In this document: positions 2,252-56,313 of the stretch, piece by piece | How the letters are laid out: the number at the start of each line of letters is the position of its first letter | How positions within the stretch are numbered: the first letter of the stretch is position 1 | DNA from: Eledone cirrhosa | Lineage: Eukaryota | Direction: 5' to 3' | Length of the DNA: 64,000 bases | Assembly: GCA_964016885.1 (NCBI GenBank) | Contig: OZ024756.1 | Span: 37,200,001-37,264,000, forward strand | Notes under the pieces: generated by a model | Database searches by the model: none | What the model was told of the DNA's origin: nothing | The model's input: the letters and a program-made list of their open reading frames with translations, nothing else | Program-made: the position numbers and the translations under genes

Positions 2252-2404
2252 CCCCGGGTTCAATCGGGGGTAACCACAGTAAGTAAGGTACTCAATACAA
2301 GGCAGAGTATAAATATATAATATAACAGTTCATTCGGGAGAAATCATCCTGATGATTTCTCCCGAATGAAACAGTTCTAGTCCTGTAGAAGCCATTTCTA
2401 TATT
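2252..2404. mobile_element. Family A HHR cassette with inverted 3' tail and partial fold-back; stem I 5' arm lost
   Basis: CTGATGA 2349-2355, ttc/gaa stem II, GAAACAG..CTGTA^gaagcc. Upstream 2329-2348 is the reverse complement of the core. 2252-2313 matches 27330-27391 and the reverse complement of 40169-40210. Confidence 0.75.
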
Positions 2405-2649
2405 AAATATATATATATATATATATATATTACGCGTATACACGCATATATATATGACAAAACATAATGCATTAAAACCAAAATAATGTAAGGTCAGGTG
2501 ATCATCTGGCCAGGAAGTGATTTACCCCCACCCCCTAGTTCTCTTTTACTGTATTGGTTTCTCACATTGACACAAGGTCACATATATTTGGAGAGGATGG
2601 AAGCGAGGTACAGAAGATTAAATGTTACTTAGAATTGGATTGTGTTTGT

Positions 2650-3300
2650 ATGTGTATATATATATATATATATATATATATATATATATAATATATATAT
2701 ATATATATATATATATATATATATATTTATATATATGTTATATATATATATTTATTTATATATATGTATATATATATATATATTTATTATATATAGTAAA
2801 TATATGTATAGTATATATATTTATTTATATATATAAGTATATATATATTTATATATATGTATATATATATAATATATTATATTATTTATATATAAATATA
2901 TGTATATACATATATGTATATATATATATATATATTTATATATATATATATATATATATATATATAAAATATTAAACAAATATATATATATATATATAAA
3001 TATATGTATATACATATATGTATATATATATATATTATATTTATATATATATATATATATATATATATATATAAAATATTAAACAAATATATATATATAT
3101 ATATATATATATATATATATATATATATATATATATATGTGTGTGTGTATGTATATATAAATATACATATATATACATATATTTATATATAAATTAAATA
3201 TATATATATATATATAACATATATATAAATATATATATACATATATATATATAATAAATAAATATATATATATATATATATATATAATATATATATATAT
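2650..3300. repeat. Degenerate (TA)n array with higher-order repeats
   Basis: Directly visible. Confidence 0.95.
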
Positions 3301-3891
3301 GCTATTAAAATTCCTATTTTTAATTCTTGAAATCTGATTTTGTTTGAAGGAAACATACCCCAGCATGCCACAGCCAACTGCCTGGAACCAGTGGCTGAGT
3401 AAAAGACTATATAATGGTCTCCCTCGTCGACAATCCCAGCATGACCCCTCCCAGCATGATACTTTTAGCTGTAATGGTTAAAACAGACTATAGCACTGTA
3501 AAAATGTTGGTCCGAGGGCATATATCGTTAAAGGTAGTTTATAGTAAATTGATACAGTGTACAGTATATAACTGGTAATTTGTTTCAGAAACCTGATAAG
3601 AATGAAAGACAATGTAGAATATCCCTTCCAGCAAGCCATGGGCCCCGAAGTCCTGAAGGAATCCTAGAGGCGCTGTTGGGATATAAGACAGTGTTTTGAG
3701 GAATTTTAACCTAGTGAGGGCCCATCTCTACAGCTCTGAACACAGCTTACTTCTTCCAGAGAGAGAGAGAGAGAGAGAGAGAGAGAGAGGGGAGAGAGAG
3801 AGAGAGCGAGAGAGAGAGAGAGGGGGGAGAGAGAGAGAGAGAGAGAGGAGAGAGAGAGAGAGAGTTGGGTGGTGGAAAAAGAAATCGAACT

Positions 3892-4412
3892 CTAGTACTG
3901 GACTTGTACTTTATCGACCCCGAAAGGATGAAAGGTAAGTTGAAGCCTGACCCCAGGAGAATTGCCGCATTCCATCCGACGTTCCAACATGTCAGCCAAT
4001 CACTTTCAATGTCGATAACTGACACTGATTTAGGCACACACAAGGCCAGCAATTTAAAGAGGAGGGGAAGTCGATTAAATCGATCCCAGTGCATTACTGG
4101 TACTTTAGTCAATCAACCCTGTAAGGATGAAAGGCAAAGTTACACCTCGGCGAGATTTGAACTCAGAATGGCAAGAGCCGTAACTCTATGCGTCAAAGCA
4201 TGGCGTCCGACCCTCTACCGATTCTGCCAACAACAATAATGGTTTCTTATATAGGCACAAGACCAGCAATTTGAGGGGGAAGGGAAAGTCGATTAAATCG
4301 ACCTCAGTGCATTACTGGTGCTTATTTTAGTTAACCTCGGCTGGATTTGAACTCAGACCGTAAAGGGACGTAACTCTGTGCTGCAAAGCATGGCATCAGA
4401 ACCTCTACCGAT
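3892..4412 (-). mobile_element. Cluster of tRNA-derived SINEs (fragment 3892-3964; copies 4026-4230 and 4243-4412)
   Basis: Reverse complement of the SINE seen at 26999-27189 (A/B-box head, gcctttcatcc..gtcgataaa..gtacc central domain, aattgctggccttgtgcc tail). Confidence 0.85.
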
Positions 4413-4661
4413 AGTGGTTGATGATGGTTTTTATATAAACCATGTGGGTTTACATAAAGATCGAGGATGGTACAAGACTATACAGAGTTGGTTTACATGA
4501 AAAACATTTTTTAATGGGAAATAATGAAAAGGAAAACAAATAGGTATAAAAAAAAATCAAACAAAGAAAATTCCATAATAGTGAGGAGACTTCCGAGGGT
4601 TACTTGTTGGAAAGGTCTGCAAAAGGCTACGGCCCCCTTGACCACCGAGGGAAGTACTTAC

Positions 4662-4707
4662 TCTAAGTTGTCCTCGCCAATCTACGAGTGAATAGTCAGA
4701 GCAGGAC
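4662..4707 (-). CDS. Possible 46-nt internal exon (SCSDYSLVDWRGQLR in one open frame)
   Basis: ctaatgacAG acceptor and GA|GTAAGT donor in unique sequence. Polypyrimidine tract is weak and no homology was recognised. Confidence 0.2.
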
Positions 4708-52821: not shown

Positions 52822-52880
52822 TCTAGCTATGGAAACGTCCGGAGCTCAGCCGTCGGATCCCGAATCTTTTCATATTACCC
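52822..52880 (+). mobile_element. Diverged family B half-hammerhead fragment
   Basis: tctagctatg-GAAAC-gtccggagctcagcc-GTC-ggatcccgaatcttttcatattaccc, closest to the 41.4-kb variant. Confidence 0.55.
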
Positions 52881-53329
52881 ATATATATATATGTGTTTGT
52901 GTCTATATTGTATCTGTATTCTTGACCGTTGGTCAGTCAATGGCAACATTGAGGACCGAATAAATTAAATTAACCGATATAAAAGACAGAGAAGCGAAAA
53001 CCAACCAAACAGTGAGTGTGTTCTGTTATTAATTCTGGCAATATTACACAAATATGACCCTCCCCAAGTATAACAATATATATATATATATATATATATA
53101 TATATATAGATAAATCTACCAAGAGTTTACGGTAGTGTCCAATCCGTATGAAGAACTCAATATAATCCGGATATCATGGAAAGAAGAGATGCATTCAAAA
53201 ATAATGAATAAAACAATGATGAAATCATTGAAATATGAGTGGCCAGTTACAGCCAGTTTGAACAGAAGAGGTGAGAAAATTCTGACCGGATACGGCCAGT
53301 TTAAATGCTAAAGGGTTAATCGTCTTTGC

Positions 53330-53592
53330 CTTCCCTTCAAATTGCTGGCCTTGTGCCAAATGTAGAAACAATTATTTATGACTTGAGGGCAGTTAATTGC
53401 CAGTATCGTTAGAGCGTAATTTCTTAACCCCCTTTCTGTTCTGAGTTGAAATCCCACCGAGGTTAACTTCGCCTTTCCTCCTTCTTCTCAGATCGATATC
53501 ATACCGTACCAGTAAAGTGCTGGGGTCAATATAATTCACTGTGCCCATCCTACTTTTGAATTTCTGGCCTTGCACCTAAATTAGAAATAATT
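53330..53592 (+). mobile_element. SINE tail fragment followed by a diverged full SINE (53387-53592)
   Basis: Matches the SINE consensus. Confidence 0.8.
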
Positions 53593-56014
53593 ATTTAGGA
53601 TTTAGGGTGGTGTATTAGATAAATTCATTAGAGTGTCAGGCAGAATGTCTTGTGGTTGGTGGGGTGTGGGCTGTGTGTGTGGTGGTGGGGCTAGGAGTGA
53701 TGGTTGGATGTGGGGTTGGGGTGTAAGGTACGTTACCTATTAAATGTTACGCCTGCCACTACCAACACCATAACCACCACCAGCAGTGTCAGCACCGCAA
53801 CTACCATCACTGCCCACACCACCAACACCACCAACACCACCACTATCAACACCACTACTACCATCATTAGCATTATCACCACATCTTCCACTACCACCAA
53901 TAACATCACCTGCGCCAACACCACCACCAGTACCACCAACACCACCACCATCACAAGCATCACTACCATCACCATTAACATCACTACCATCAATATGAAC
54001 ACCAACACCACTACCGCCACCATCACCACCACCATCATTACCACCACCATCACGACAATCATTACCACCACCACTACCACCACCTTCACCACCATCATTA
54101 CCACCACCACCACCACCACCACCACAACAACAACCACCACCCTCGCCACCATCACTAAGACAGTGCACCACCAATACCACTAACATCACCAGCAACACTC
54201 ATCCATCCACACAGGCACGCACACGCAAACGCACACACACATACATACACACACACACGCACACACACACATACACACGCACATACACATACACGAAATG
54301 AAGTCAACACAGAATCTTACGTCACACATAACTCACCAACACTCCGTCGCCACCACCACCACCACCTCCACCACCACCTCCACCATCACCACCACCTCCA
54401 CGACCAGCACCACTTCCACCACCAACACCACTTCCACCACCAACACCACTTCCACCACCACCTCCTCCACCACCACCACCACCACCACCACCACTACAGT
54501 CCCCCACCACCACCACCAACATCACCACCACCACCACCAACACCTCCTCCACCACCACCACCACCACCACTACAGTCCCCCACCACCACCACCAACATCA
54601 CCACCACCACCACCACCACCACCACCATCACCACCACCTCCACCACCAGCACCACTTCTACCACCACCTCCTCCTCCACCACCACCACCACCAACACTAC
54701 AGTCCACCACCACCAACATCACCACCACCACCATCACCACCACTTCCACCACCACCTCCTCCTCCACCACCACCACCACCTCCTCCTCCACCACCACCAC
54801 TACAGTCCACCAACACCAACATCACCACCATCACCACCACTTCCACCACCACCACCACCACCAACACCACTCCCACCACCACCACCACCACCACCAACAC
54901 CACTACCACCACCACCACCACCATCACCACAACACATCTGTCAGCATCTGCCATACCACTACCACTACCACTACCACTACCACCGCCACCCCCATCGCAC
55001 TCCTTCATCCTCCTCCAACACACGCTATCCCCCCCCCACCCCAGTCTGTCCGTGTGTCTAACTCTCTCTCTCCCTTCTCCTCCTACCCTCCTCTCTCCGC
55101 CCATCTCTCTCTCTCTCTCTCTCTGTCTCCACTAACTTTAGACTTCAGCAGTGATGGAACGAACAAAGAAGCTAAGAATAACTGTTGCTATGAAGTGTCG
55201 AGGGGGTCCCTGGGAGTTAAGTAGAAAGTGGAAAAGGGGAGAGCGATGAGTTGAAAGATCGTGCCTGCTGCCTTTTCAATTGGGAGAGGGGGGGGGGGGG
55301 CAGGAGATGGAGGTGACAGTAGTACACACACATACACACACACACATACGTATATATTTATATATATATATATATATATATATATAAATATGCGTGTGTG
55401 CGTGTGTGTGTAATATATACATATATATATATACGCAAGTGTGTGTGTATGTATACACGCACTCAAACATATACATAGATGTATATATGTCTATATATAT
55501 GTATATATATATATATATATATGTGTTTGTGTGTGTGTATATATATATATATATATATGATATATACACAAATATATATATATATATATATTTGTGTGTA
55601 GTTTGGTATACATTATATTTGTGTATATATATATATATATATATATATATGTACATGCACATTCACAAATATATGTATAAGAAAAGTCTTTAAGGAAAAA
55701 GAGGAGGAGAACTATACAGTATAATGATGGTATATTAGTTTAAAGCTTGATATAGATTTAAAAGTGCCTTAACCTTTCGGACGCTAGTCCTTCAACGGAA
55801 GATAGATAAAAGAGAAAAGAAGCTGATTGGAGGAGTGAGTCTTGTTACAGGGGCATCTGACAAGAACAAGAGTTTTTGTCTGGTGATAAACAGGCGAAAC
55901 TCTAGAGGAACAAACCTCACTATTTAGCCTTAATAAAATGAATATATATAAATATATATATATCTATATATATATATATATATATATATATATATATATA
56001 TATATATATATATA

Positions 56015-56204
56015 TAGGAAAAAGTATGACCCCGACGACAGAGCTCAAGCCGTTTCGACGGCTATTTCTAGAAATAGCCGTCGAAACGGCTTGAGCTCTG
56101 CCGTCGGGGTCATACTTTTTCCTATTACCCACTCTACTACCCTAAGTATTGAGTAATCTGGTTCGTTATGGTCCACCTGGTTCCTTACCACAATTCCTTG
56201 GTTA
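56015..56204. mobile_element. Family B fold-back cassette
   Basis: Palindrome centred on atttctagaaat, plus the family tail. Confidence 0.8.
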
Positions 56205-56260
56205 TATATATATACATATATATATAACCAAGGAATATTTTCATTCGGGAGAAATCATCA

Positions 56261-56313
56261 GGGCTTCCTGATGATTTCTCCCGAATGAAACAGTTCTAGT
56301 CCTGTAGAAGCCT
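56261..56313 (+). ncRNA. Intact family A type I hammerhead ribozyme
   Basis: gggcttc-CTGATGA-t ttc tccc gaa t-GAAA-cag ttctagtc ctg-TA^-gaagcct; inverted duplication of the core at 56239-56262. Confidence 0.82.

Follow-up and report, generated by a model that had tools for sequence, protein, structure and literature searches.

For the hammerhead ribozymes in the pseudo-long terminal repeats (pLTRs) of metazoan Penelope-like elements (PLEs), a palindromic loop III and a dimeric mode are standard (PMC4209133). In the axolotl, the HHR_Amex2 ribozyme has a U·U mispair in about 60,000 type I motifs and cleaves to 22% in 1 h as a monomer, but much better as a dimer (PMC7229834). Among natural hammerheads, U10.1-U11.1 occurs and is the best-tolerated mispair at that position (PMC3088659). 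Insertions of endonuclease-bearing PLEs are marked by an inverted 5'-truncated copy, a one-sided tail and (TA)n targets (PMC8557442, PMC3846280). In the lizard Poseidon element the tail is the stretch between two start sites of the reverse transcriptase (RT); the ribozyme cleaves with the assistance of a protein, and insertion does not require this cleavage (PMC11167929). Animal retrozymes have also been linked to PLE pLTRs (preprint 10.64898/2026.07.22.740005), and a paper on octopus repeats treats Penelope families, its excerpt making no mention of hammerheads (PMC13282606). Here, we analyzed a 64-kb stretch of the Eledone cirrhosa genome (contig OZ024756.1, positions 37,200,001 to 37,264,000; hereafter the window), which contains five short repeats with a hammerhead motif. 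With a probability of about 0.8, these are heavily 5'-truncated 3'-end (pLTR) insertions of a Penelope-like retroelement or of a mobilised non-coding derivative.

The repeats resemble the metazoan PLE hammerheads in being type I motifs, in occurring mostly as solitary dispersed copies from truncated elements, in their opposite-strand pairs, in a palindromic loop III and in a predicted dimer. They differ in having a helix III of 3 bp plus an A-U pair with an 8-nt loop, a short U·U-closed helix II and no linked open reading frame (ORF) that we could see (PMC4209133). Like HHR_Amex2, they form a high-copy metazoan type I motif in which helix II starts with a U·U mismatch and helix III is more stable. 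In contrast to the 350-bp tandem repeats of the axolotl, which have a 2-bp helix III with a tetraloop (PMC7229834), they are solitary stubs with a PLE-type tail and inversion. The 5' truncation, the head-to-head inverted copy, the optional one-arm tail, the AT-rich or (TA)n targets and a probably uncleaved RNA template all have counterparts in described PLE insertions (PMC3846280, PMC8557442, PMC11167929). Compared with the endonuclease-bearing PLEs, the tail is 50-70 and not 30-40 nt long, no autonomous partner was identified, and no ORF starts from the hammerhead, where both ATGs of the motif meet a stop within five codons. Stem II of the natural U10.1-U11.1 hammerheads opens with U·U as here; the passage concerned describes no high-copy animal retroelement family (PMC3088659).

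Our literature searches, including hammerhead combined with octopus or cephalopod, gave no description of the family, which may already be listed in Lünse 2017 or in the supplements of PMC4209133 or PMC7229834. A 19-nt piece of the motif was found in no paper of the literature searched, and exact-pattern scans gave no matches in metagenome contigs, bacterial and archaeal genomes or viral contigs. The U·U closure is already known from the axolotl and other natural hammerheads; the family itself is probably a further PLE 3'-end hammerhead lineage.

Anatomy of the five repeats

All five repeats lie on the plus strand and are 55-160 bases long each, with position C3 of the core at 2349, 27417, 40108, 49650 and 56268. 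They are numbered here as copies 1-5 (2.35, 27.4, 40.1, 49.65 and 56.27 kb). Five copies had been claimed in the first-pass annotation, and this was borne out: a 29-nt probe allowing up to 3 mismatches had 5 matches in the window and none in 100 shuffles. A covariance model built from the five copies and run on the window recovered no sixth full copy, its next matches being two inverted arms. The copies are spaced 6-25 kb apart and are not in tandem. The surrounding DNA is animal-like, and 58% of the window is low-complexity by a trinucleotide-entropy mask.

The PLE reading is based on a shared 3' end, (TA)n flanks in four of the five copies, a tail on one arm only, partner arms that are anchored at the 3' end and stand head-to-head with the direct arm, and a second hammerhead family of the window that repeats the same plan. 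Every copy has the common 3' end CTATA(T), with the predicted cleavage site 15-17 nt upstream of it. Adjoining (TA)n is a weak test, as such runs are very common in the window. The tail, which the earlier account had overlooked, follows downstream of this end. It is direct in copy 3 (40163-40211), inverted in copy 1 (about 2243-2313) and copy 2 (27330-27392), and thus present on one arm only in 3/5 copies. The direct arms start at C3 (copies 1 and 3), at -6 (copy 5) or at about -20 (copies 2 and 4).

Upstream inversions are present in three copies (2.35, 40.1 and 56.27 kb), and copy 2 adds an inverted tail only. They had been described as short inverted duplications of the core. Gap-tolerant alignment revealed instead that they are partner copies anchored at the element's 3' end, head-to-head with the direct arm and carrying internal deletions of 11-30 nt. 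The inverted arm of copy 3 matches 40106-40121 at 16/16 positions, skips 30 nt and matches 40152-40161 at 10/10; private letters of this copy are common to both arms. In copy 5, a 24/24 match is followed by a skip of 28 nt and a 5-nt end match, which alone is short evidence. In copy 1 the inverted stretch begins at the distal end of the tail and extends to position +2; its arm has two deletions, one inside helix III and one in the stem I 3' arm. The parts of the five copies are as follows.

2243..2313, minus strand: inverted tail of copy 1, far 3' end outward; outer boundary approximate; 40/43 identical to the direct tail 40169-40211
2317..2348, minus strand: inverted partner arm of copy 1, core +2 to CTATA end; alignment blocks of 20, 4 and 7 nt
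2349..2404, plus strand: direct arm of copy 1, starting at C3; core intact, no stem I 5' arm; predicted cut after 2387
27330..27392, minus strand: inverted tail of copy 2, directly abutting the direct arm; 40/42 identical to 40169-40210
27393..27472, plus strand: direct arm of copy 2 with about 20 nt of upstream body; hammerhead 27411-27461; predicted cut after 27455
40077..40107, minus strand: inverted partner arm of copy 3, CTATA end to about -7; 30-nt internal deletion
40108..40211, plus strand: direct arm and tail of copy 3, starting at C3; core intact; predicted cut after 40146; tail 40163-40211 direct, then (TA)n
49630..49703, plus strand: copy 4, direct arm only, with about 20 nt of upstream body; hammerhead 49644-49694; 5' boundary approximate; not in (TA)n
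56234..56262, minus strand: inverted partner arm of copy 5; 24 nt of core, 28-nt deletion, 5-nt match to the element end
56262..56323, plus strand: direct arm of copy 5 with the only complete hammerhead (56262-56312); GUA at 56304-56306; ends before (TA)n

The direct arm of copy 1 ends at TTCTATATT, followed by (TA)n. In copy 5, the GUA at 56304-56306 and an inverted arm at 56239-56262 had both been placed correctly before.

The arrangement was also followed in public DNA reads, in which the hammerhead family is abundant. Four runs of one organism were aligned to 27330-27480 at 80% likeness, giving 4131 contigs and 5133-5474 reads per run. These reads come from reduced-representation libraries, in which single loci can be over-represented, and the 80% threshold selects for similar copies. 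The sequencing runs listed as sharing words with the window included no RNA run, which is no indication of expression either way. Opposite-strand joints connect 27376-27392 to 27472, with up to 306 reads and 34 start points in run X4. Together with loose ends that lead from the tail into the hammerhead end, they indicate that the tail normally lies 3' of the hammerhead. Further inversion junctions were found at 27411/27418 and 27431/27433, mostly with few start points. Since the tail is joined at several points and other inversion junctions occur as well, the arrangement is genomic and variable. The outer end of the inverted tail of copy 1 agrees with the loose-end consensus of runs X5 and X6, and a TTAC insertion behind 27400 in the reads corresponds to the upstream letters of copy 4. 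Over 27330-27480, the reads had neither a pile-up of ends nor a step in depth at the GUA site.

Hammerhead core, predicted folding and variation

The common layout consists of the stem I 5' arm, the core, a U, a 3-bp stem II with a 4-nt loop, a U or C and GAAA, followed by a 3-bp helix III around TTCTAGTC, UA, the stem I 3' arm and the shared end. The loop III sequence TTCTAGTC is invariant in all five copies. At 10.1-11.1 the usual pair is absent and replaced by U·U in four copies and by U·C in copy 4, so that the type I parse with this closure, as first proposed, was right. A parse with an extra U after A9 was rejected; the U·U remains in it and stem II breaks. CUGAUGA had been given as common to all copies. 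It is intact in three of the five; copy 2 has U3 (UUGAUGA), together with U·U closure and a TAC/GTG helix III, and copy 4 has G6 (CUGGUGA) with its U·C closure. Accordingly, three copies have all core letters of a type I hammerhead. Parts of stem I are lost as had been noted, the direct 5' arm being absent in copies 1 and 3, where 2 contiguous pairs are left. Copies 2, 4 and 5 have 6, 3 and 4 pairs in stems I, II and III, respectively, with the ends joined in stem I. Only copy 5 combines an intact core with both arms of stem I: a 6-bp stem I, CUGAUGA, U·U with a 3-bp stem II, GAAA, and a 4-bp helix III with an 8-nt loop that holds CUAG.

Folded alone, copy 5 keeps stems I and III of the parse, at a predicted energy of -10.5 kcal/mol (z = -1.1). 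Predicted pair probabilities in this best copy are 0.09 for stem II and 0.46 for stem III. The genomic stubs are likely inactive as ribozymes: mutations or the absence of a stem I arm affect four of them, and in the remaining one the hammerhead is predicted to be hidden by pairing with its inverted arm. An Rfam search over the whole window gave no hammerhead among the 150 of 558 matches listed, and those listed were microsatellite-driven microRNA noise.

Stem III covariation had been put forward as support for selection on structure. The changed pair is present in copy 2, where G-C is replaced by C-G at 15.4-16.4, next to a C-G to U·G change at 15.2-16.2. As evidence for selection it is weak, resting on one pair in one copy. 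Both-sided changes affect 2/13 pairs among the five copies, and the observed score was reached by 41/500 shuffles. The other of these pairs is the terminal stem I pair of copy 3 (G-C to A-U), which consists of junction letters and was deduced from the inverted arm. In the reads, the covariant G at 27451 was seen in at most 12/2454, 7/2290 and 12/2543 reads (≤0.5%), and the stem III change is therefore an event of one lineage. At the same position, non-compensating A and wobble T reach 5-8% each.

The CUAG palindrome of loop III had been suggested as an aid to dimerisation. The intermolecular helix III duplex is predicted at -12.8 kcal/mol and the hairpin at -1.4 kcal/mol. However, duplexes with a shuffled loop III average -8.8 kcal/mol and 14% of them equal the real loop, so that the palindrome adds only modestly to the predicted dimer; a centred 4-nt palindrome is expected in 6% of random 8-nt loops. 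Based on these values, CUAG is compatible with dimerisation, but is not evidence for it. In the reads its C varies by 11-15% and its G by 3-7%.

Across the reads, loop II positions vary by 11-56%, and C3 is the majority letter (74-87%). At the stem I pair 2.1-1.1, the changes that would turn C-G into U-A reach 5-12% and 6-10%, counted separately for the two sides. No substitution at 10.1 or 11.1 was found among the 40 of 89 variant rows listed, and the U·U closure looks fixed family-wide. By our reading of the counts for each kind of change, a G10.1 subfamily of at least 3% is excluded in runs X1 and X6, because all T changes in X1 and the sole T>G in X6 belong to other positions, but not in X4 or X5.

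The G6 core of copy 4 (49650-49656) was also found in the loose-end consensus before 27432, supported by 326-369 reads per run in X4-X6 at an agreement of 0.57-0.65. It is possibly an amplified subfamily with a damaged core. A wider proposal, which we regard as speculative, is that a high-copy PLE-end lineage fixed the U·U, offset by a long helix III whose CUAG loop would allow a switch between monomer and dimer, and that one subfamily was amplified after the core-breaking A6G. If this were true, the genome itself would provide evidence, through the amplified G6 subfamily, that PLEs can spread without self-cleavage.

A second hammerhead family and other repeats

The window contains a second hammerhead family at 5124-5215, 6850-7055, 41331-41600, 41660-41870, 41935-42096, 52835-52880, 56014-56205 and 62274-62455. 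Its 3' half has GAAAC, a 4-bp helix III with a GAGCTC palindrome in the loop and a GUC or GUA site. Most copies stand head-to-head with a one-sided tail in (TA)n, and nearly all are truncated inside stem II; the copy at 41465 (minus strand) retains TTGATGA and G10.1-C11.1. The 7 scan sites included 6 head-to-head pairs, five of them with a tail on one arm. The tail motif GTATTGAGTAC is common to this family and to the one studied here. At 56193-56236, just upstream of copy 5, a short (TA)n separates the tail end of the second family from its mirror image, and the two families are fused at 56.0-56.35 kb.

Minimal hammerhead-like cores at 7222 (plus), 38013 (minus) and 39109 (minus) have a long stem II and a TATGTA or TATATA helix III. 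They resemble minimal PLE hammerheads, and related repeats lie at 5243-5628, 37770-38051 and 38856-39285. Long fold-back palindromes with no obvious hammerhead and arms 69-98% alike were found at 2014-2238, 23455-24074, 38201-38518, 39076-39285, 39928-40084, 40220-40387 and 43573-43684. These may be elements of the type of miniature inverted-repeat transposable elements, other retro-stubs or assembly artefacts. An abundant dispersed family resembling short interspersed nuclear elements occupies 3893-4416, 6638-6825, 19991-20199, 26982-27205, 28993-29219, 44862-45084, 46278-46508, 48541-48746 and 53313-53597; these repeats may be of octopus type. Two tandem arrays, one with 45-nt and one with 62-nt units, lie at 56566-57521 and 46590-47270; they contain open frames, for which only spurious Pfam matches were obtained.

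Proposed insertion mechanism, alternatives and meaning

The anatomy of the copies suggests how they may have arisen. If the lizard Poseidon element (PMC11167929) is a guide, AT-rich DNA would be nicked by an RT-endonuclease. Two start points would be available for copying, one directly behind the hammerhead and one at the distal end of the tail, which would make the tail optional; copying would end no more than about 20 nt upstream of the core. In the same event, a further copy facing the opposite way would often form, and it would later lose internal pieces. That the copies continue across the GUA site makes an uncleaved RNA the likely template. For the master RNA, a weak type I hammerhead is predicted, which would cut 3' of GUA chiefly when two molecules exchange helix III strands or when a protein assists. 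The first reading of the motif as a type I hammerhead with U·U and a possible helix III dimer was reasonable and has published precedent, but the PLE context had gone unrecognised.

Several observations weigh against assigning the repeats to PLEs. The 94 non-repetitive frames of at least 50 amino acids in the window gave no PLE-related Pfam match and included no RT or GIY-YIG frame; the only Pfam matches were spurious ones on one tandem repeat. Stubs of this size are in any case too small for an ORF with a telomerase-like RT and a GIY-YIG domain. The tail exceeds that of published PLEs, and helix III is longer than usual for the metazoan PLE hammerheads, in which G10.1-C11.1, the pair replaced here by U·U, is highly conserved (PMC4209133). 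Target-site duplications are unreadable in (TA)n and none is evident by eye at copy 4. Rfam scans of 49600-49740 and 56255-56325 gave no match to a hammerhead model at E up to 10. In the reads, 27427 C>A and 27432 G>A, both in stem II, attain frequencies of 8-11% with no visible compensation. Finally, the organism of the reads shares only 2/10 sampled words with the window and may be a relative rather than the window's species. PLE membership is probable from the combined anatomy.

A neighbouring explanation, which we consider unlikely, is that the copies are dispersed monomers or fragments of a non-LTR retrozyme (LTR, long terminal repeat), a self-cleaving and circularising tandem unit of 170-400 nt with its master arrays elsewhere. 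It overlaps with the PLE reading, as such retrozymes are proposed to derive from PLE pLTRs. The 6-bp helix I and 4-position helix II are canonical metazoan type I geometry, a distal extension of stem I is predicted in copies 2 and 4, and the closest structural precedent, the U·U-bearing HHR_Amex2, is a retrozyme. Copies running through the cleavage site are expected from a ligated circle, too. However, the window has no head-to-tail tandem units, no joint back across a unit was found among the 15 of 42 read joints listed, and the fixed 3' end, one-sided tail and head-to-head arms are marks of PLE insertion. Much less probable still is a decayed or chance look-alike in some other short repeat, free of selection on RNA structure. 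The failure of the two locally scanned copies to match Rfam, the weak predicted stems II and III and the non-significant covariation would fit this idea. It is opposed by the presence of all conserved core letters at the right spacing with three complementary stems, by read variation that is concentrated in loop II, and by the position relative to the tail, which is the same as in the second hammerhead family with its G10.1-C11.1.

Two further proposals concern the inverted arms only. The first-pass annotation implied antisense control, and the upstream segment could in principle be a selected switch that keeps an active ribozyme off until release. RNA 56239-56313 is indeed predicted to form a hairpin of -43.6 kcal/mol (z = -9.6) in which the hammerhead fold is abolished, and such an arm is present in three of the five copies. 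Yet no two arms are alike in length and junction, and they correspond to known head-to-head products of PLE insertion, the reads contain further junction positions, and in 2/3 arm-bearing copies the direct arm lacks stem I, so that no cleavage in cis is possible. Moreover, the second family is inverted likewise around cores mostly truncated inside stem II, and at least 6 hammerhead-free fold-backs occur in the window. A designed switch is hence unsupported and highly improbable. That the arms are fold-back artefacts of assembly or library preparation is the most improbable of the explanations. The window has many near-perfect fold-backs, some centred on (TA)n, but the arms carry internal deletions and differ from their partners, and raw reads from three other samples, as well as contigs, contain opposite-strand joints within the core, though most of these have few start points. 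It is likely that the inverted pieces upstream are scars left by insertion and not a device for turning the ribozyme on and off.

In the PLE reading, the family extends the long list of type I hammerheads associated with PLEs by one lineage and is a second case of a U·U-closed helix II in animals. Nothing about it indicates a new RNA switch. Its thousands of copies with readable ends are material for the study of templating by uncleaved RNA, of the 5' pile-up at helix I and of the spread of catalytically dead subfamilies.

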